In this document: positions 37,332 through 48,638 of the stretch, piece by piece
Position numbering within the stretch: the stretch's first letter is position 1
Layout of the letters: each line of letters opens with the position of its first letter
Source of the DNA: Promethearchaeota archaeon
GTDB taxonomy: Archaea; Asgardarchaeota; Lokiarchaeia; Sigyniarchaeales; SOKP01
Reading direction: 5' to 3'
Length of the DNA stretch: 50,054 nucleotides
NCBI GenBank assembly: GCA_019894975.1
Contig: JAGXNO010000027.1
Coordinates: forward strand, 1 to 50,054
Notes under the pieces: model-generated
Database searches by the model: none
The model's input: the letters and a program-made list of their open reading frames with translations, nothing else
What the model was told of the DNA's origin: nothing
Program-made: the position numbers and the translations under genes

Positions 37332-37859
37332 ATGATAGCGGATTATACATTTAAGTTAATTGTCATTGGACCTGCTGCGGTTGGCAAAACAAGCCTTATT
37401 AGAAGGTTTGTCGAGAATAGATTCTCGTTTAACTATAAATCTACAATTGGTGTAGATTTTTTAGCTAAGACAATGCGATTAAAAGGAGATAAAATCGTTA
37501 AATTAGCGATCTGGGACGTAGGGGGTCAAGCGCGCTTTAGATTCTTACGACGCAATTTCTATGAAGGAACTCATGGTGCTATATTGGTGTTTGATCTCTC
37601 AAGAGCCAATACATCCCCCAAAATGAAAGATTGGCTTATCGATATGCGTAGTATAATTGAGTATAAAATTCCTCTATTAATATTGGGTAATAAGTCTGAT
37701 TTACTCTCTGAAGTTGGCGAAGTTATCGATAGAGAGGAACCGAAAAGGTTTGCTGAACAAGAAGAAAGTTTTTACCTTGAAACATCGGCAAAAACCGGCA
37801 ATAATGTTGAACAAGCGTTTAATGAATTTACCAAACAAATGTTAAAATCTAATTCTTGA
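37332..37859 (+). CDS. Rab-like small GTPase
   Basis: GPAAVGKT, STIGVDF, WDVGGQ, NKSD, ETSAK. Confidence 0.93.
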   Translation: MIADYTFKLIVIGPAAVGKTSLIRRFVENRFSFNYKSTIGVDFLAKTMRLKGDKIVKLAIWDVGGQARFRFLRRNFYEGTHGAILVFDLSRANTSPKMKDWLIDMRSIIEYKIPLLILGNKSDLLSEVGEVIDREEPKRFAEQEESFYLETSAKTGNNVEQAFNEFTKQMLKSNS

Positions 37860-38007: not shown

Positions 38008-38532
38008 ATGCCGTTATTTGTTTTTAAAGTAATTATCATTGGAGCAGGTGCAGTAGGAAAAACCAGTCTACTGCATAGATTTGTAGAAAAGAGTTTTAAC
38101 TTTAGATACAAGCTTACAATCGGAGCTGATTTTTTATCAAAAGTAATTGAAGGATTTCCGGACAGCGATACTACATGTAAATTACAAATATGGGATATTG
38201 GGGGCCAGGAAAGATATAAATTTCTACGTTCGAGTTTTTTTGATGGGGCAAATGGAGCATTAATAGTTTTTGATATTTCTAGATGGCATACATTTGAAGA
38301 ATTAACTGAATGGCTTTCAGATTTACAAGAATTTGCGGGAAAAGGTGTCCCTTTTATCTTAATAGGGAACAAACTTGATTTGATTAAAGATGTTTATGGT
38401 GATTATGACAAAAAAGAAGTTGAAGAGTTTGCCAATAAGGAGAATGGTTATTATATAGAAACGTCGGCTAAAACAGGTGAAAATGTAGAAACTGCATTTT
38501 ACGATCTAACTCAAAAAATGATTAAAAATTAG
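38008..38532 (+). CDS. Rab-like small GTPase
   Basis: GAGAVGKT, TIGADF, WDIGGQERY, NKLD, ETSAK. Confidence 0.93.
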   Translation: MPLFVFKVIIIGAGAVGKTSLLHRFVEKSFNFRYKLTIGADFLSKVIEGFPDSDTTCKLQIWDIGGQERYKFLRSSFFDGANGALIVFDISRWHTFEELTEWLSDLQEFAGKGVPFILIGNKLDLIKDVYGDYDKKEVEEFANKENGYYIETSAKTGENVETAFYDLTQKMIKN

Positions 38533-38572: not shown

Positions 38573-41500
38573 CTAATCAATGATTCTAATAAATGCAAAA
38601 GATAATAAATTCGTATAGAACTTAGCTAAGTTACGTCTTTTCATTTCATTTGTTAGATCTTCATGTTCAAAAGCGAGATCATCTAATTTTTTCGTTATAA
38701 TAGTTATATCTTTCTTAATAAACCTGATTTCTTCCTCTAAATCTTGCATATCTTGTAACCTTTGCTTTTTCCTTTCCTCATCTTTTAAGCTATTAATATT
38801 CTGTAGTTGTCGTTGTGTTGGTCTATTCTTTTCTTTTTGTTCTAACCTTTGTTTTAAAGAGCTAATCCTTAAATTTAGTGTTTTTTTGTTATTTTCATGC
38901 ATTTTCTTTTTTTTTACTCTTTCTGAATTATAGATTTTATCATTTAACCTCTTTATTTCTCCTTTCCATATTGAAGTTTTAGACTTAACGATTTTTTTTG
39001 CACTATTTTGAAGATTTAGTATCAGATCTATGTCCAGATTTAGTTTTTCTTTCCCTCTGTTGAATTGAAACAATTTATCATAGCTTTGTATATCAGATAG
39101 AGTACTTTCAAAATTTTCTAATTCTGTTCCTTCCTTGTCCAATATTATGGATAAAATCTGACTTTCTATAATGTATCCTTGAAATTTAACAACGAAGATA
39201 AAGAGATAGAACTCCTTTCTTGCGGCTAAGTCAATAATAAGATGATATGGTAAGTTTTCTTTTTTCATTTCAAGTATAGTATAATTACCTTTAAAAGAAT
39301 CATTCCTACAAAAATCTATAACAGCATTAATGAGGGGATGACCTAAAGCAAAAAAATCAATTTCTTCTCTCTCCTTAGCAAATTCTAAGTCAAATGTGCC
39401 AGTATATTCATTCGATAGATTAAATCTTGTTTTTCTCAGAAAACTATCAGTAAGTTTAATCTTAGATAAAATAGTTTCTTGTAATTTTTCTTGGACGAGG
39501 TCTGACTTAATATTTTTTATGAAACCATATTTATTGTTAAATAAGCTTAAGAAATAATTAATAAGAAAATAAAGCTCATTATGAGTTAACTTTACATCAA
39601 CACAAGAGGCTAAAGAGCCAATAAGACCTTCCATTTGGAATGATTTTTTGTCAATCATTAAATCATCTAATTGCATTTCGATTTCTTTTGCCTTTTTTAT
39701 CTCGTCGTCTAAAGTACGATAAAATTCATTCAAATTCTTCCTCTTTTTGCCGTCATCCTCGGCAAAGATTACATTTTTAAGATCTTTTTCAACTTTACCT
39801 ATAATAGGTTCTAAAATTCCTATGGATTCTTCAAATAAATCAATCCTTTTGATTAGAGCATAAACAACATCCGTTTCTACAGTTCCTTCCATATAAAAAT
39901 TATAAATAAAAATTTCACGTGATTCTTGCCCAATTCTATCAACACGACCGATTCTTTGCTCAAGTTTCATAGGATTCCAGGGTAAATCATAATTAATAAT
40001 TGTTCTACAGAACTGAAAATTACGGCCTTCACCACCAATTTCGGTTGATAACAATATTGCAAAACCTTTTTGATTACGAAATCGCTCAATTGCCTCATCC
40101 TTCTGTTGCTTGTCTAATCCTCCAAAAAAGGTTTCTACATAATACTTATTTACCTGTTTCTTTATTAAATCCTTTAAGAATTTAAGCGTGTCTACAAATT
40201 GGGTAAATACTATTACTTTCTCATTGACATTATGAGAATATATATTATTAAGGATGTCAATTAATTTATCAGATTTCGAATCATAAGGAATGTTATTTAA
40301 TTTATCGTAAAACTCTTTTAAAATCTTTTCCTGATTGAAGATAGTAATACTTTCTTCAATTTGTTTTTCTGTTAATTTATCTTTAAGGTTATCAAATGAT
40401 TCAGAATCGAGGAACTCTTCTTCAAGCTCCAGTTCAAAAAATTCAGGATTTTCTTCTTTTATAACATCTAAATTTAGAAAAATACCCTTATAACGAGTAA
40501 TCTGTTCTAACCTTCTCTCTAGACTCTTGAGGATTGCATATTTAGAGCTTGTCAATAACTTCTGTAGGGTAGTAATTACAAATCCCAGTCCTACATTTTC
40601 TTTACTTATAGAAGAATTATAGATTTGCGCAAGATATAACCGAATTTCATTGTAGACATCTAGTTCTTCTTTAGTTGGATTAACAATGATCGTATTGACA
40701 ATCCTTTTATTAATAAATTCTTCTGTAAAAACGTTTTTTTTTCGATTTCTAATGATTAATTTAGATAGAGTATGATCTTCCTCAATTCTTCTAAACAATT
40801 TGGATTTAAATGACTCATCACTTAGTTCATCTAGAATTTGTTTATTATTCTTAGTTTTATCAATGTAGTGCAGATCTCTTAACAGTTTTATGGTGTTTTT
40901 TACTTCAAAATTATTTAATTTACCAATATGATTTATATTAGCTATAAGGAGATTAATAAAAGGTAGATTCTTCCTAAAATGTTCAAATTCGCTAAAAGAA
41001 GCAAAGACTTCAGGGTGAATAAGTTCAATTAAAGAAAATAACTCAAATGAATGAAGTTGCAACGGTGTTGCTGTTAATAATAACATACTTTCAGAAACAG
41101 TACTTAAATTTCGAGCTAATTCATAATTTAGCGTTTCTCTATATCTCCCCGTAGTTGCATTTATTAGGTATCGTCGTAAATGGTGTGCTTCATCAAAAAT
41201 CACAATATCCCATGAAATCCTTGACAATAGTTCTATATACTTTCGACTTCGTGCAAATTGAAGTGAACAGATAATTAAATTATCATAATAAAAGGGATTT
41301 CGCAGTAAATCCCCACTCTTATAATAACCATTCCGTTCCAGTTCCTTTACTTTTTTTCCATCATAGATGGTAAATCTAATATGGAATTTATTTTCTAGCT
41401 CGAACTTCCATTGCTGAACAAGTGATGCAGGTACGATAATTAAAATTTTCTCGGCAAGATTCCGAGCCATCATCTCTTTCATATATATTCCTGCTTCTAT

Positions 41501-42181
41501 GGTCTTTCCTAATCCCACTTCATCTGCAAGAAGTATACGCGGAAAATGTTCTTCAGATAAACGATGAGTGACATTTATCTGGTGAGGCATCAAATTTAAA
41601 CGAGAATTTGTAATACATTTGATTTGATAAGATGTATAATATGAATGAAATAGATATGCCCAATATTTAAGTAAAAAATTTTGAGGGGGATCAATTTCCT
41701 GTTTAATAATTAAACTTTCTACTGGGGTTACAAACTTAGAATATATTTCATCTTCGTATATTTGAACCTTTTTGCCATTTTCCTTTAAAAATTCATAAGA
41801 AATTAATCCATCCTTAACCAAGAACTCTTTAGAATTGATTATGCCGATACCTTGCTTACTTTCAATCTTTTCATTTACATCAAAAATGAAATGAATCAAA
41901 TCAATAGGATGAATAATTTTAATAATATTATTCTTAAAAAGTACCTTAAATTTGATGAGAAATTTAGTATCTTCATCATCTAAAGATTTAGAAATGGGAA
42001 TTTCTATTACTTTTATAATCTTACCTAAACCTAAATCCGGATTTAGCCTATAAACTACTAAATTTCCTAAATTGAACTTCTGTCCTTGACAATATACATT
42101 GAAGCATTTGGTAAATCTTGACTTTAATTCATTACCGCAAAAAGGACATACAAATTTCTGCGATTTTATCTTTGTAACCAT
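38573..42181 (-). CDS. SNF2-family ATPase, RapA/HepA-like, with N-terminal Zn ribbon
   Basis: [52 protein letters not shown], TFD...ALGHPL. Confidence 0.9.
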   Translation of the reverse strand: [1202 protein letters not shown]

Positions 42182-42245: not shown

Positions 42246-43127
42246 TTGAAAATGTCAGAAGTAGGAATAGAACCAACATATATTGGCAAAAACGAGAAAT
42301 TAAAGTTTATAGTACCACAAGAACTCTTTAGAATGAAATTACAGTCGAATGAGAAAATCGATCCTGAAATCTCCAAAATTTACAATACTTATATTCAAGA
42401 AACTTTCATTGGATTCCAAGAAGCTAGAAAGACCAAGTATGGAAATGAAAAAAATATTAAAACAATAACAACGTCTGAATTTTGGCAGGAGTTTGAAAAG
42501 GAATCAAAAGAATTAGGAATTGATCTTATTGGATATACACCTCTTATTGAAGATTTTATGTTTTATAATCTTAAAGTGTATGGACGCAATCTAGTGATAT
42601 TAGGGATGGAAATGTTATGGGATGAAATCAAAACTGCCCCGAGCATTCACTGTGGTGTTGAGGCATTTCGAGTATATTCTAAATTAGGAGAAGTTACCAT
42701 TCAATTAACTGAATATTTAAAAGAACGTGGATATAAGAGTGAGGCTCATCATCCATTTGGAGGTAAATTTCTATTCCCCCCTCAAGTGGTTGCTGCGGGA
42801 TTGGGAATTATGGGTAGGAATGGTCTTGTAATCACACCTGAGTTTGGACCTCGTCAAAGATGGGCTATAATTTCCACGGATGCTGAACTACCTACTCCTG
42901 TTAAGAGTGATTTAATCCATATGGAAGAATATTGTAAAGATTGTGGGGCTTGCATTAGGGGATGTAAAGGAGGTGCTGCGTATGAAACTCCAATTTATCA
43001 TGAAGAATCTCCAGTTATAACTCACATTGACCGTTCCAAGTGTATTGATAGCTTAATCAACAATAATTATTGCAGTTACTGTCTTAAAGTATGCCCACAG
43101 GGACATCCCCAAAAAAAACCAATATAA
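42246..43127 (+). CDS. Reductive dehalogenase/QueG-superfamily cobalamin-Fe-S protein
   Basis: AAGLGIMGRNGLVITPEFGPRQR, CKDCGACIRGC, CSYCLKVCP. Confidence 0.82.
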   Translation: MKMSEVGIEPTYIGKNEKLKFIVPQELFRMKLQSNEKIDPEISKIYNTYIQETFIGFQEARKTKYGNEKNIKTITTSEFWQEFEKESKELGIDLIGYTPLIEDFMFYNLKVYGRNLVILGMEMLWDEIKTAPSIHCGVEAFRVYSKLGEVTIQLTEYLKERGYKSEAHHPFGGKFLFPPQVVAAGLGIMGRNGLVITPEFGPRQRWAIISTDAELPTPVKSDLIHMEEYCKDCGACIRGCKGGAAYETPIYHEESPVITHIDRSKCIDSLINNNYCSYCLKVCPQGHPQKKPI

Positions 43128-43216: not shown

Positions 43217-45979
43217 ATGACTGAGTCTAATGAAATGGTTGTTGGTGAAAAAATCAAGAGTGTTACTTCAATAGAAATCTTGAAAAAGGTAAATACCGCC
43301 GCTAATTATTGCTATAACTGTAATAAGTGTAATAACGTGTGTCCTACTGCTTTTCTCGACATTTTTTATCCTCGTAGTCTAATTACAGACTTGACTTTTC
43401 TAACACCCGAAGAAGCGTTGGAAAATAATGATATTTGGAAATGTTTAACGTGCGGGTTATGTTCAGTCTACTGTCCAATGACTAAAGAAAATTTAGGTGT
43501 TAATTTTACTCAAATAATTAAGGATCTTCGCTCACTCGCTTCAGATTATGAACCATTGATAGAAGGATTACTGAGTTGCAATCATGAAAGAGTATATTCA
43601 AGTTTGCCTAAATTAATGGCTGAAGATAAAATTAAATTTACAAACAAAATTGGCTTTTTAGAGGAGACAGGATTAAAAGTATCTGATAAAGGTGAAATTG
43701 GTTACTTTATGGGGTGCGTTCCCTTTTTAACTGGTGCTGCTCCTTGTGTTGTAGGATGTCCTGCAGGAGTGGATGTTCAAGGGTATGTTTCGCTAATATC
43801 AGAAGGAAAATATCAAGAATCTATTGATTTAATAAGAGATAAAAATCCTTTACCATATTTATGTGGTAGAATTTGCACTGCCCAATGTGCATTAAACTGT
43901 AATCGTCAAAATTTTGATGATCCCGTTGCTATTCGTGAACTAAAACGGTTCGTTTCTGATTGGGAAGCAGACCACCCAAATCAAAGCAAAATAAGACCTG
44001 TACCACAAACAAAGGAAAAAGTTGCAATTATAGGTGCGGGACCTGGAGGATTATCTGCCGCGTACTTTCTTGCAAGAATGGGCTATAAACCAACGATCTT
44101 CGAAAAAGGTGATAAAACCGGTGGCGTAGTCAGATATGGTGTGCCCCAATACAGACTTTCTGATGAAGCACTTGATCATGATGTAGATTTTATAAGAAGT
44201 ATGGGTGTAGAAATAGTTCTAAATAAAGAGTTCGGCCCTAATTTCACATTAGAAGATATTTGGAAAGAGGGATATAAAGCAGTTTTTATTGCTGTAGGGT
44301 TATACGTGCCAAAAACATTAAGACTCGAAGGTGAAGATTTACCTAATGTACATGTGGCTCTCGATTTTCTTTTAGATCGAAAATATAAATGTTCAGAAAA
44401 TCCTGAAGAATTTAAAGGAAAAACATTCGGTATTATTGGGGGTGGAGCCGTTGCGGTGGATTCAGGTGAAACAGCTATTCGTTTAGGAGCATCTAAAGCT
44501 GATCTTGTTGATATTTTAACTGAAGATGCCTTAAAAAATGTACTTAAAGACTTGCATGAAGCTGAAAGAGAAGTAATGGAGTATCATTTTGAAACATCGA
44601 CCGCAAACATAACAAAGGAACCTAATGGTAAATTAGCTTTGAATTGTTATAAGATTAAGTGGGGTGATCCTGATCCTGAAACAGGGAGGAGACCTTTAAA
44701 TAAAATTGAAGGTTCGGATTATAAAATTGTAGTTGATCATATTGTTATTGCTATTGGTCAAGGACTTGACCCAGAACCACTGAACGCTGCAACCGATAAT
44801 CAATTAACGATTGAGCGAGGAAAGATTGTGGTTGATGATTTAACTTATGAAACTGGCATTCCCGGAGTTTTTGCGGGTGGAGATATAATTTATAACTCTT
44901 TGATGTGTGCTGTCGATGCTATTGGAAATGGGAGAGAAACAGCCTTTACAATTGATCGCTATATTCGGGGTCTTGATTTAAAAGCAGGAAGAATAAGGAA
45001 AAACGACTTAAAACGGTCTACCATTCCTAAAAAATATATCCAAACAAATTCATGCCAAGAAATGAACTTTATGCCTGGTTCCGAAAGGTTAGTTTGTTTT
45101 GATGAAATGGAATTAGGGTTTTCAGAGGAACAAGCAAAAAAAGAAGCTAATCGGTGTTTAAATTGTAATTGTTGCTGCAACTCAGATCAAATCCCTGAAG
45201 ATTTTGAAAATGCACTTGATGATTCTGGTGTTATGATATGTGATTATGGGAGCCAAGATAATTGGCGATCACTCAATGCTTCTGATTATTTAGATATTCC
45301 GAGAAGGGTAATAGGTATATTAAACCAAAATGATATCGTTCCAGTAGTTTTACCAGAGGAAAAATGCTGTGGACATGATGCACTTTGGCGTGGGGATGTA
45401 GATACATTTAAAAAGCTAGCTGAGTACAATGTAAAATTATTTAAAGAAGCAGGAGTCAAAACCTTGATTTTTAATTGCGCAGAAGGATATTATACCTGGA
45501 AAAAAGAATACAAGAAACTATTCAAGAAACCTGAAGAATTTGATTTCGAGATTTATCACATAACTGAGTATATTTTAAAAGAGAAACTCTTGGAAGATGT
45601 CTCATATCCAAATTTAGAAAAAATTAAAGTCACCTACCATGATCCCTGTAGACTCGGAAGGATGAGTAAGGTTTTTGACGCACCCCGTGAGGTTTTGAAA
45701 CAAATCCCTGCCGTAGAATTGATTGAAATGGAAGAAACTATGGAAGATGCTGAATGCTGTGGAGTATCTGCTTACATTTCATGCAATCAGGATTCAAAAA
45801 AGCTTCAAGAGAAAAAAATCCTTCAAGCAATAGAAACAGGAGCAGAATATCTAATAACCGCATGTCCAAAATGTATCGCTCATTTAAATTGTTATTTAAA
45901 TGAAAATAGAGAGTTAAAAGCACAAATAAAAGTAAGGGATATTGTAAGCTTTTTAGGACAACTGTTATTCTTAATTTAG
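43217..45979 (+). CDS. HdrD/GlpC-like (dicluster plus 2 CCG) protein with nested GltD/NfnB-like FAD/NAD(P) oxidoreductase
   Basis: CYNCNKCNNVCP/CLTCGLCSVYCP, YFMGC, then PCVVGCP...CGRIC, GAGPGG, GGGAVA, FAGGD, RCLNC, then EKCCG, CAEG, YHDPC, ECCG, ACPKC. Confidence 0.88.
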   Translation: MTESNEMVVGEKIKSVTSIEILKKVNTAANYCYNCNKCNNVCPTAFLDIFYPRSLITDLTFLTPEEALENNDIWKCLTCGLCSVYCPMTKENLGVNFTQIIKDLRSLASDYEPLIEGLLSCNHERVYSSLPKLMAEDKIKFTNKIGFLEETGLKVSDKGEIGYFMGCVPFLTGAAPCVVGCPAGVDVQGYVSLISEGKYQESIDLIRDKNPLPYLCGRICTAQCALNCNRQNFDDPVAIRELKRFVSDWEADHPNQSKIRPVPQTKEKVAIIGAGPGGLSAAYFLARMGYKPTIFEKGDKTGGVVRYGVPQYRLSDEALDHDVDFIRSMGVEIVLNKEFGPNFTLEDIWKEGYKAVFIAVGLYVPKTLRLEGEDLPNVHVALDFLLDRKYKCSENPEEFKGKTFGIIGGGAVAVDSGETAIRLGASKADLVDILTEDALKNVLKDLHEAEREVMEYHFETSTANITKEPNGKLALNCYKIKWGDPDPETGRRPLNKIEGSDYKIVVDHIVIAIGQGLDPEPLNAATDNQLTIERGKIVVDDLTYETGIPGVFAGGDIIYNSLMCAVDAIGNGRETAFTIDRYIRGLDLKAGRIRKNDLKRSTIPKKYIQTNSCQEMNFMPGSERLVCFDEMELGFSEEQAKKEANRCLNCNCCCNSDQIPEDFENALDDSGVMICDYGSQDNWRSLNASDYLDIPRRVIGILNQNDIVPVVLPEEKCCGHDALWRGDVDTFKKLAEYNVKLFKEAGVKTLIFNCAEGYYTWKKEYKKLFKKPEEFDFEIYHITEYILKEKLLEDVSYPNLEKIKVTYHDPCRLGRMSKVFDAPREVLKQIPAVELIEMEETMEDAECCGVSAYISCNQDSKKLQEKKILQAIETGAEYLITACPKCIAHLNCYLNENRELKAQIKVRDIVSFLGQLLFLI

Positions 45980-46145
45980 TTAATTTTCATTTCTTTCTAA
46001 CAAATTAATTATCACCAATTTTCCAAAATTAAGTTAACACATTTTAAAGAAGGAGATTTTTAGAGTTAACAAGTAACCTTTAAAATTTTGGTATTTTATT
46101 TTTAATAACTACAATCAAATCATAATTTAAAAACTAAATATAATA

Positions 46146-48080
46146 GTGAAAAACATGAGTAAAACTAAGGAAATACCAATTCCTGATCAAGTTAAAGGTT
46201 TTACCCAAGTAAGACTTGACGTCAATCTCTCTGATGGAAAAATTAGTAAATCCAAGTTATCTAACGAATTTTGCCGTGATTGGATTGGGGGATATGGTTT
46301 TGGAGCAAAAGTCCTATGGGATGAATGCCCTGCGGGAGTAGATCCATTAAGCCCTGAAAATGTTTTTATATATGCACATGGCCCCTTTCCTGGAACAATC
46401 CTACCTACCTCCAGTAAATATGGAGTATTTGCTAAATCTCCTTTAACTGGTCAGTTTGGAATGGCAATATCTTCTGGATCTGTTGGTGCTCAGGCACGTC
46501 GTGCGGGTATCAATATGCTTGTATTCAAGGGTAAAGCCCCAGAACCTGTTTATATGGTTGTTGATGACGATGATCATTATTTAGTTCCATGTAAAGATAC
46601 GTTTTGGGGTAAAGGATGTTGGGAAACAGAAGAAATTTTGAGAGAAGAATTTCAAGATCAACGCCTTGGAGTGATGAGTATTGGCCCAGGAGGAGAACGT
46701 GGAGGCTTTATGGGATGTATTACTAATGATCGCAATAGACAAGCTGGAAGAACTGGAATGGGTGGTGTTATGGGATCTAAAAACCTTAAAGCAGTGTGTT
46801 TTCGAGGTACTAAGGGAATCAGTGTAGCCCAACCAGTCGAGTTTTTTAAGTTAGCTAAGAAACTAATAAAAGTTGCAAATGGACCTGCTACAGCTAAATA
46901 TCGTGATTTAGGCACTCCAGCAGGGATAACTAGCTATAATAAACTCGGGATGATGCCAACTTTCAATCATCGTGAAGGTACATGGGATAAAGTTGATGAT
47001 GGAACTTTTACTGGTGATATACTCAATCAAGATTGGGTTGTGAAGAAAGTTGCGTGCTCTCAATGTTCTATAGGATGTGATCATATCACAAAAATACCCA
47101 AGGATCACCCCCACTGGCCTAATCTCTACTCTAGTATTGACCAAGAATTATGTTATAGTTTTGGATCTGCAACTGGTAATTTTGATTGGCCAACTGTATT
47201 TAAATGTGTATCATTAACTGATGATCTTGGAATTGATGCTATCAGCGGGGGTGTAACCGCTGCGATGGCGTCTGAGTGCTATGAAGAGGGAATTATCACC
47301 AAAGAAGATTTAGGCTATGAATTACCTTTTGGATCAACAGTTAACCTCGTCAAATTTACTGAAGAAATGATTCTTGGAAAAGGATTTGCCGGAAAGATTT
47401 TTGGTGATGGAACAAGGGAAGCTGGAAAGCGATTAGAAGAAATGGGCAGAACAAATGCAAGTTATTATGCAATGCATATTAAAGGTCTAGAAATGCCTGC
47501 TTTTGATGTCCATGGGATGAGTTCATTTGCTGTTGGGGTAAGTGTTTCTATTCGTGGAGCATGTCACTTACGTAATGGCTCATACGGACTTGATGCTAAG
47601 GGAAAGTTCGATAGATTCGGTTATGAAAAACCACTCGAAAGGGGTAAAGCAATCAAAGAATTAGAGGACATTTATGCAATCATCGACTCATATATAGTCT
47701 GTAAATTTACAAGAGGTATTTATGAAAATGATGCTGAAATGGCGAAAGTATTTGAATTAGTAACAGGAATTCCTGTGACTGAACAATTTATACAGCATCG
47801 AGGTGAAGCAATTCTTAACCTCTCAAAATGCTTTAATATACGAGAAGGATGGAAACGCGAGGATGATCACCCTCCAGAAAGATTCTTTAAGCAACCTCAC
47901 ACAAGAGGACCCGCTAAAGGCGTCGTCTTAAAAGAAGATGGATATCAAAAGGTTCTAAGCGGATATTTTGAAGCTCGTGGCTGGGATACTAAGACTGGAA
48001 TTCCAACTGATGAAACTTTAAAGAATCTTGGATTAGATTTTGTTATTGGTAAATTAACTCCTTCAGGAGGTAAAAAATAG
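46146..48080 (+). CDS. aor: Tungsten aldehyde:ferredoxin oxidoreductase family
   Basis: IGGYGFGAK, KSPLTG, AGRTGMGGVMGSKNLKA, CSQCSIGC, DDLGIDAIS, RGACH, RGWD..TGIP; alternative ATG start at 46155. Confidence 0.93.
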   Translation: MKNMSKTKEIPIPDQVKGFTQVRLDVNLSDGKISKSKLSNEFCRDWIGGYGFGAKVLWDECPAGVDPLSPENVFIYAHGPFPGTILPTSSKYGVFAKSPLTGQFGMAISSGSVGAQARRAGINMLVFKGKAPEPVYMVVDDDDHYLVPCKDTFWGKGCWETEEILREEFQDQRLGVMSIGPGGERGGFMGCITNDRNRQAGRTGMGGVMGSKNLKAVCFRGTKGISVAQPVEFFKLAKKLIKVANGPATAKYRDLGTPAGITSYNKLGMMPTFNHREGTWDKVDDGTFTGDILNQDWVVKKVACSQCSIGCDHITKIPKDHPHWPNLYSSIDQELCYSFGSATGNFDWPTVFKCVSLTDDLGIDAISGGVTAAMASECYEEGIITKEDLGYELPFGSTVNLVKFTEEMILGKGFAGKIFGDGTREAGKRLEEMGRTNASYYAMHIKGLEMPAFDVHGMSSFAVGVSVSIRGACHLRNGSYGLDAKGKFDRFGYEKPLERGKAIKELEDIYAIIDSYIVCKFTRGIYENDAEMAKVFELVTGIPVTEQFIQHRGEAILNLSKCFNIREGWKREDDHPPERFFKQPHTRGPAKGVVLKEDGYQKVLSGYFEARGWDTKTGIPTDETLKNLGLDFVIGKLTPSGGKK

Positions 48081-48638
48081 ATGTCAAAAATAGGAACCAA
48101 GAAAAGAGGCGGAGTTGTTCATCAATTTATTATTGTAGACCCAAACTTATGCACTGGATGTGAAACATGTGAATCTGTATGCTCTTTCGTACATGATGGC
48201 GAATTTAATCCAATAAACACAAGAATTCATAGAGTAAGAATTGAACCCATTTTAAATGTCGCATTGGCGTGTCAAAAATGCGATGACGCCCCATGTGTTC
48301 GCAGTTGCCCTGAAAAAGCTTTAGAACAGGATAAAGAAACAGGTTCAATTATTGTTGATGATGATAAGTGTAATGGGTGTGCTTTTTGCATCAGAGCATG
48401 TGATTTTGGTGTTCTAAGTTTACACATTCAATCTCAAAAAGCTCTTATTTGTGATCTTTGCGAAACTATGAAGGATGATTACATAAATGAAGAAAGAGGG
48501 GAAAAATACCCTGCATGTATAGATGTATGTCCAAAGGAAGCTATTTCATTAAAGGATGTCGAGCAAATAGGAGAAGAAAAGCGGATTGATGCTGTAAAAA
48601 GACTTTTTGGCGATCTCTTGAAAGAATCAGAAGCTTAA
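48081..48638 (+). CDS. 4x[4Fe-4S] polyferredoxin (DmsB/CooF/AorA-like) subunit
   Basis: CTGCETCESVC, CQKCDDAPCVRSCP, CNGCAFCIRAC, CDLC...PACIDVCP; starts immediately after the aor stop, preceded by AGGAGG. Confidence 0.92.
   Translation: MSKIGTKKRGGVVHQFIIVDPNLCTGCETCESVCSFVHDGEFNPINTRIHRVRIEPILNVALACQKCDDAPCVRSCPEKALEQDKETGSIIVDDDKCNGCAFCIRACDFGVLSLHIQSQKALICDLCETMKDDYINEERGEKYPACIDVCPKEAISLKDVEQIGEEKRIDAVKRLFGDLLKESEA

Follow-up and report, generated by a model that had tools for sequence, protein, structure and literature searches.

Architecture of the nested fusion protein

A stretch of 50,054 nucleotides from the genome of a Promethearchaeota archaeon (contig JAGXNO010000027.1 of assembly GCA_019894975.1; the whole stretch is referred to as the window) contains, at positions 43217 to 45979 of the forward strand, an open reading frame for a protein of 920 residues, P0001, in which a flavoenzyme module of the GltD/NfnB type (the cassette) is nested inside the first CCG domain of an HdrD-like protein. 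From the N-terminus, P0001 consists of an HdrC-like dicluster domain, the start of the first CCG domain (CCG1), the cassette of about 485 residues, the remainder of CCG1 and a second CCG domain (CCG2), and its homologs form clusters of likewise about 920 residues. With evenly balanced confidence we propose that P0001 is a soluble single-chain reductase, linked to NADH and acting on a disulfide or similar sulfur compound, in which the cassette replaces HdrA.

Pfam assigned Fer4_8 (residues 29–88), Fer4_20 (174–252), Pyr_redox_2 (268–572) and two CCG domains (the best at 805–890) to P0001, and NCBIfam matched PRK12771 over residues 172–658 and the CCG half of TfrB over residues 695–914. Together with a check of the open frame, these searches recovered every motif that had been quoted in an initial annotation of this DNA. 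All elements lie on the forward strand. The HdrC-like ferredoxin domain (positions 43301–43480, residues 29–88), which matches the HdrC chains 5odc_C and 9sfi_E, contains the two CxxCxxCxxxC motifs of HdrC-type proteins (C32/35/38/42 and C76/79/82/86), and all eight cysteines are invariant. It is followed by strand 1 of CCG1 with its first cysteine C167 in the motif GYFMGC (43691–43729, residues 159–171), a segment that aligns with the beginning of the undivided CCG1 in the paralog P0123 described below. The first part of the cassette, corresponding to Fer4_20 from profile position 29 onwards (43736–43972, residues 174–252), carries six invariant cysteines, namely C177 and C181 in PCVVGCP, C216 and C220 in CGRIC, C224, and C228. 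The second part comprises the FAD and NAD(P)H Rossmann domains (44018–44932, residues 268–572) with the motifs GAGPGG (273–278), GGGAVA (408–413), LVDIL (430–434), and FAGGD (552–556), so that the GxGxxG, GxGxxA, and GGD signatures of GltD/NfnB proteins are all present. The third part, a displaced start of Fer4_20 (45098–45178, residues 628–654), contains C647 and C650 in RCLNC as well as C653. A linker with few conserved columns (45185–45286, residues 657–690) leads back to CCG1, which resumes at 45287–45481 (residues 691–755) with C717 and C718 in KCCG and C754 in NCAEG, and CCG2 (45629–45886, residues 805–890, positions 1–84 of the Pfam CCG profile) is complete with YHDPC (C811), ECCG (C847, C848), and ACPKC (C883, C886). 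In an alignment of 47 homologs sharing 49–92% identity, each of the 22 cluster cysteines checked was invariant, as were the FAD and NAD glycine motifs.

Residues 1–171 and 690–920 of P0001 align at 52% identity to P0123, a paralog of 409 residues encoded in the same genome, and at the site of the cassette the alignment contains about 18 residues in P0123 and 518 in P0001. Scanned alone, residues 691–755 match only positions 14–78 of the CCG profile, and because they cover no more than these positions, positions 1–13 with strand 1 and the first cysteine correspond to residues 159–171, which places the split at position 13/14 and leaves C167 at a distance of 550 residues in the sequence from the other CCG1 cysteines. 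The cassette is a true nested insertion in CCG1, after its first cysteine, and not an end-to-end fusion; this is what the initial annotation had claimed, and the claim is borne out by the alignment of the flanks, the split of the profile, and the structural superposition described next. The inverse description, an HdrD inserted into a GltD, was ruled out, as the permuted cassette is found with many other hosts and the two HdrD flanks form one continuous sequence in the sister family.

The structure of P0001 was predicted by AlphaFold2 from 47 homologs (mean predicted local distance difference test score, pLDDT, 85.7; predicted template modelling score 0.86). The orphan strand 159–171 reached pLDDT values of 90–93 and the linker values of 70–79. 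When VIA-align was used to compare the model with all representative structures, HdrB (8rvu_B) aligned with a Z score of 20.9 and a root-mean-square deviation of 2.5 Å over 234 of 284 residues, connecting model residues 159–920 with chain residues 1–271, and the best match for the whole scaffold was mycobacterial EtfD (9ojn_A; Z 24.3, 363 residues aligned, model residues 14–920). Foldseek with the whole model returned GltD-type matches only, and HdrB and EtfD were found by the VIA-wide search alone. The question whether a CCG1 divided in this way can refold is answered positively in the predicted model, in which the CCG pair has an HdrB-like fold across the split. HdrD/HdrBC (HdrB 8rvu_B, HdrC 5odc_C) and the P0123 family share with P0001 the order of an HdrC-like domain followed by two CCG domains, but in P0001 CCG1 is interrupted by the cassette and the linker, and according to the gene annotation of the window neither HdrA, MvhD nor the membrane protein HdrE is encoded nearby.

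Authenticity and distribution

More than 110 clusters of proteins of about 920 residues (frames of 918–922 residues), with identities of 48–92%, were found in data from NCBI, JGI, ENA, and Logan, and the homologs are labelled Promethearchaeota or Lokiarchaeota in public records. When 400 species genomes from the phylum were surveyed, a full-length match was detected in 82 of the 134 genomes belonging to the GTDB family of the window and in none of the 266 genomes from 32 other families. The Asgard-wide scope of the initial annotation was too wide, as the architecture is confined to one family in this survey. Among 1.84 billion protein representatives clustered at 50% identity, a single one has the architecture.

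It is exceedingly improbable that P0001 is an artefact, that is, a mis-assembled chimera of HdrD and GltD or a decaying pseudogene. Contigs from an independent study span positions 43576–45178 and 45151–46175 with 1 and 3 differences, respectively, and so bridge both junctions of the cassette (43730 and 45284); the frame of 918–922 residues recurs in 82 other species genomes and in the protein clusters, and all cofactor residues are conserved. Both the chimera and the pseudogene were rejected on these grounds. The source metagenome-assembled genome has an estimated contamination of 8.6%, and nothing was found that speaks for an artefact.

In the literature searched, the coverage of which was incomplete, no earlier characterisation of the architecture was found, in agreement with the statement of the initial annotation. 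The parts of the protein and the principle of GltD insertion were known before; new to the searched literature are HdrD as the host, insertion within a CCG domain, a parallel case in an FrhB-like host, and the association with AOR (aldehyde:ferredoxin oxidoreductase), the latter two being described below.

Circular permutation and relatives of the cassette

The Fer4_20 domain, which in canonical GltD/NfnB proteins stands at the N-terminus, is present in the cassette in permuted order. Positions 29–110 of the profile match residues 174–252 at the beginning of the cassette, and positions 5–32 match residues 628–654 at its end (E 1.5e-4); in addition, a local alignment pairs residues 628–654 with the N-terminal end of a GltD that is encoded in a related genome and is not permuted. 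Judged from its sequence, the cassette of P0001 represents GltD in a circularly permuted form. Its permutation divides the canonical motif C-x2-C-x4-C-x3-C-P, so that RCLNC (C647, C650) closes the cassette and PCVVGCP (C177, C181) opens it. RCLNC had been listed in the initial annotation as part of a GltD/NfnB/SudA-like module, and the motif does exist, but it represents the displaced start of Fer4_20 and not a C-terminal ferredoxin motif. With one half of a shared cluster motif at either end, the cassette would be expected to bring its termini together in space at a single cluster, and this would let the module occupy a loop without breaking the fold of its host. A permuted cassette whose termini share one cluster motif may thus offer a simple structural reason for nesting in varied hosts. 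The cassette is complete, with predicted sites for FAD and NAD(P)H and the cysteines for two [4Fe-4S] clusters.

In structural comparisons with VIA, the cassette showed Z scores of 44 to NfnA (9n5v_A), 43 to StnC, and 36 to NfnB (4ylf_B). The best matches, with E values of about 1e-83 and covering residues 175–653 including the trailing RCxxC, were NfnA of the Bfu type (9n5v_A from T. sibiricus, 9bov_A from C. saccharolyticus) and StnC from S. ovata (8oh5_C), all of which possess a permuted cassette as P0001 does. In StnC the GltD part (residues 102–565) has a [2Fe-2S] domain on one side and a NuoG/FdhF-like part on the other (PMC10482914). In NfnA and StnC the cassette resides in a NuoG/FdhF-like scaffold from which a bifurcating module of the HydBC type is fed, whereas in P0001 its host is an HdrD-like CCG protein, in which Pfam detected no molybdopterin or NuoG domains. 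These relatives are also NADPH users with a YRR motif, in contrast to the DIL of P0001.

Another comparable case is the type III HdrA (HdrA-NfnB) of ANME-1 (anaerobic methanotrophic) archaea and Bathyarchaeota, in which a GltD/NfnB module of about 500 residues is inserted in HdrA and has been proposed as the point at which NAD(P)H enters the Hdr system (PMC12054007, PMC9012536). There the host is the flavoprotein HdrA and the insertion is located at its ferredoxin domain, whereas P0001 has the catalytic CCG subunit as host and no HdrA accompanies it. Linear fusions of GltD and HdrD (P0126 from Syntropharchaeia, P0129 from 'Ca. Methanoxibalbensis', and P0130) contain the same parts as P0001, namely a permuted GltD, Fer4_8, and two CCG domains, but the cassette comes first and the parts are joined end to end. 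As the cassettes of these linear fusions are not close to the Asgard ones in the tree, the combination arose independently. An NAD(P)H module is thus nested in HdrA, in NuoG-like subunits and, in the present case, in HdrD-like and FrhB-like proteins.

The initial annotation had considered that P0001 might bifurcate electrons. As a single-chain equivalent of HdrABC, it would split the electrons of NADH at the FAD of the cassette between a disulfide of high potential at the CCG site and ferredoxin or a polyferredoxin reached through the HdrC-like dicluster, or operate in reverse. In favor of this, the FAD of NfnB, a homolog of the cassette, is a bifurcating one, two separate Fe-S arms are available in the form of the cassette clusters and the HdrC-like dicluster, a low-potential system of AOR and polyferredoxin is encoded next to P0001, and HdrA, the partner of the uninserted sister protein, is a bifurcating flavoprotein by family. 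However, NfnA of the Bfu type and StnC are closer to the cassette than NfnB, the GltD FAD of StnC has been reported to be non-bifurcating and to serve as a plain entry of NADPH into one linear chain (PMC10482914), and the annotation of the window contains no partner gene of the NfnA (NfnS) type, with [2Fe-2S] and FAD, beside P0001. The idea of a bifurcating or confurcating enzyme is weakened by these findings, and we regard it as rather unlikely.

Nucleotide specificity

The stretch that determines nucleotide specificity, GGGAVAVD ... LVDIL (positions 44438–44518, residues 408–434), was aligned to T. maritima NfnB (4ylf_B) and C. saccharolyticus NfnA (9bov_A), and DIL (residues 432–434) of P0001 occupies the place of YRR in both, so that the YRR of NADPH-type proteins is missing after the second Rossmann strand. 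In Rossmann folds, NADH is indicated when strand 2 ends in an acidic residue and both arginines have been lost. Because DIL replaces YRR, NADH is the likely donor for the clade that carries this motif. The replacement of YRR by LVDIL described in the initial annotation is real in P0001 but is not general in the family, as 24 of 47 members have DIL and 23 have YRR; a preference for NAD(H) over NADPH would fit the DIL clade with its acidic motif. In the survey of the phylum, genomes with two copies had both of the same type.

Proposed function

In the proposed NADH-linked reductase, NADH would reduce the FAD of the cassette. We infer that electrons would then pass one at a time from FAD through the two clusters of the cassette to the CCG site, where, judged from the protein family, a disulfide or a similar sulfur compound would be reduced. 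Synthesis of CoM or CoB (coenzymes M and B) is not known in the archaea that bear P0001. The cassette would take the place of HdrA as the electron input, and the HdrC-like dicluster would be a free second port. More tentatively, this port may dock a polyferredoxin linked to AOR, in which case NAD(H) and the CCG site would be connected to the oxidation of aldehydes or to the ferredoxin pool.

The idea that the cassette replaced HdrA, which was put forward in the initial annotation, fits the genomic setting of the closest paralog without insertion. P0123 belongs to an operon on another contig of the same genome (L034:3050-9074 on the reverse strand; contig C109 of genome G000) that encodes HdrD (P0123 itself), a double-flavin HdrA of 1037 residues, MvhD, and an FrhB-like protein, and that is predicted to specify a soluble complex of the Hdr type. 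At least 14 HdrD-like paralogs are encoded in this genome.

In the window, P0001 is preceded by genes for an SNF2 helicase (reverse strand) and an RdhA/QueG-like Fe-S protein and followed by genes for an AOR and a polyferredoxin, and AT-rich spacers of 89 bp and 166 bp flank it. The AOR (46146–48080, forward strand; Pfam AFOR_N and AFOR_C) is of the tungsten type, resembles AorB/WorL (AorB 8c0z_A, E 1.8e-100), and is a possible partner of P0001. The polyferredoxin gene (48081–48638, forward strand; Pfam Fer4_11) directly abuts the AOR gene, and its product, a possible electron wire, resembles WorS/AorA (9mqx_E, E 6e-25; 8c0z_C, E 1.5e-21). In a set of 14 related loci from 6 genera, an orthologous pair of AOR and polyferredoxin is located within 6 kb of the ortholog of P0001 at 9 loci, as it is in the window. 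The loci with an adjacent AOR come from at least three genera and from both subclades, and the pair is downstream and co-oriented in some of them and upstream and divergent in others. AorAB/WorSL units have been described as wires of Fe-S clusters that pass electrons on to flavoprotein modules of different kinds (PMC12318220), and the possible docking of the polyferredoxin at the HdrC-like domain can be likened to the way in which these nanowires plug into other flavoprotein modules. AorB/AorA and WorL/WorS are the best matches of the neighboring AOR and polyferredoxin; in AorABC and WorABCSL, the acceptor is AorC or BfuABC, whereas here the candidate acceptor is the HdrD::GltD protein. If the link to AOR is true, P0001 would represent a third kind of acceptor module for the polyferredoxin wires of tungsten enzymes.

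Several observations weigh against the proposed sulfur reductase or against its connection to AOR. Not all CCG domains are disulfide-reducing, as those in EtfD, GlpC, and similar proteins show. Compared with HdrD/HdrBC, P0001 has Gly757 at the place of the canonical fifth cysteine of CCG1, so that the two CCG domains do not present the full set of ten cysteines; CCG2 is complete, and CCG1 has only C167, C717/C718, and C754. The fifth cysteine is likewise lost in the uninserted sister family, and in the alignment EtfD has CxxC at the corresponding place. Two extra cysteines of CCG2, C856 and C892 (window positions 45782–45784 and 45890–45892), are invariant in the nested and in the plain family and have no counterpart at the aligned places in EtfD. 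Because the fifth cysteine is missing and these two are added, the chemistry of the CCG site may differ from that of HdrB; C856 and C892 may stand in as a ligand for the missing cysteine or form a redox pair. With half of the family carrying YRR, the use of NADH would be specific to one clade. As to the connection with AOR, 5 of the 14 related loci have no AOR within 6 kb, the 166-bp AT-rich spacer separates the genes of P0001 and AOR, so that co-transcription is uncertain, and in a metatranscriptome run contigs were found on the AOR gene only, with many differences, and none on P0001.

An alternative in which no disulfide is reduced is that P0001 is an AorC-like, NAD+-reducing plug for the AOR and its polyferredoxin, the electrons from aldehydes entering at the HdrC-like dicluster and leaving as NADH at the FAD of the cassette, and the CCG clusters being mere relays or remnants. 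The conserved adjacency of AOR and polyferredoxin at 9 of the 14 loci speaks for such a plug, as does the similarity of the pair to AorAB/WorSL, which deliver electrons to NAD-linked flavoprotein modules (PMC12318220; 10.1101/2023.01.23.525143), and EtfD, the best scaffold match, relays electrons and reduces no disulfide. However, all nine CCG cysteines together with C856 and C892 are invariant over the range of 49–92% identity, two CCG domains would be superfluous in a simple NAD plug, the sister family occurs in an Hdr-type operon with HdrA, and an AOR is not near the gene at every locus. We consider such a plug possible but doubtful. It can also be imagined that, in a single-chain counterpart of a bifurcating Hdr complex, the flavin of the cassette, or the junction of the three Fe-S arms, couples NADH, a disulfide of high potential at the CCG site, and electrons of low potential passed to or from the AOR-polyferredoxin wire, the cassette being a transplantable NAD(P)H port that was moved by this archaeal family between HdrD and FrhB hosts, and this we regard as speculative and of low probability.

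The relatives of Lokiarchaeia possess many Hdr-like genes and no known heterodisulfide, and how NADH, ferredoxin, and thiols are balanced is an open question in syntrophy models of the origin of eukaryotes. P0001 is a single expressible gene that is predicted to join a site for NAD(H) directly to a catalytic site of the Hdr type, and the natural DIL (NADH-type) and YRR (NADPH-type) versions allow comparison.

Paralogs and evolution of the cassette

A second nested cassette is encoded in the same genome by the gene for P0124 (822 residues; L002:1099-3567 on the reverse strand, contig C77 of genome G000). Its permuted GltD cassette is 52–53% identical to that of P0001 and is nested in an FrhB_C domain, positions 3–49 of the FrhB_C profile being found before the cassette and positions 65–116 after it, and the displaced start of Fer4_20 again lies at the end of the cassette. 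The operon of P0124 also encodes an HdrB-like protein, an Fe-S protein of 676 residues, MvhD, and an MvhG-like protein. An AlphaFold model of P0124 obtained from 10 sequences had a pLDDT of 53 and was not used.

In a tree of the host sequences (HdrD flanks), the nested proteins are all united in a single group with a Shimodaira-Hasegawa approximate likelihood ratio test (SH-aLRT) support of 93 that adjoins the plain family of P0123-like proteins, and within it the DIL clade and the YRR clade are supported by values of 97 and 87, respectively. This topology is consistent with a single insertion. In the tree of the cassettes, all Asgard cassettes form one clade (support 100); within it, those of the DIL type and the ones nested in FrhB are sister groups (99), and the YRR type stands separately. 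In the approximately unbiased (AU) test, forcing the HdrD cassettes together cost 102 log-likelihood units (p = 1.6e-5) with all columns and 40 units (p = 0.035) when the NAD subdomain and three long-branch rows were omitted, the constrained group having been named only after the first tree had been seen. FrhB-nested cassettes with a readable specificity motif are all acidic, with VDIM or VEIR. These comparisons lend moderate support to the view that HdrD and FrhB hosts have exchanged the whole cassette or, as a minimum, its NAD subdomain.

In other genera, the ortholog of P0001 is followed by an NfnA-like gene (294 residues) and a gene for a linear fusion of 905–916 residues composed of ferredoxin, FrhB, and unpermuted GltD/NfnB parts (L023:8900-12518 on the forward strand, and also L020, L026, L030, and L033). 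In these genera the NfnA-like gene abuts the linear FrhB-GltD gene, and the pair looks like an Nfn-like enzyme with FrhB input.

Other neighboring genes

Upstream of P0001, a gene at 42246–43127 (forward strand) encodes an Fe-S protein of 293 residues with a C-terminal dicluster; matches to Fer4 were weak, and the RdhA/QueG-like core was recognized by eye only. The annotated start codon is TTG, and an ATG two codons further in is the likelier start. As this RdhA/QueG-like gene was found near the ortholog in only 4 of the 14 related loci, a role as obligate partner of P0001 is not supported. In one genus, genes for Kelch-repeat beta-propeller proteins are located between the AOR gene and the ortholog of P0001 (L023:4753-5943 and L033:3558-5837, both on the reverse strand).

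Farther upstream, two tandem genes for small GTPases of the Ras family (37332–37859 and 38008–38532, forward strand) adjoin the gene for the SNF2-type helicase (38573–42181, reverse strand), which has 1202 residues and a RapA_C-like tail, and this arrangement is kept in related genomes (L028, L029, and L031).

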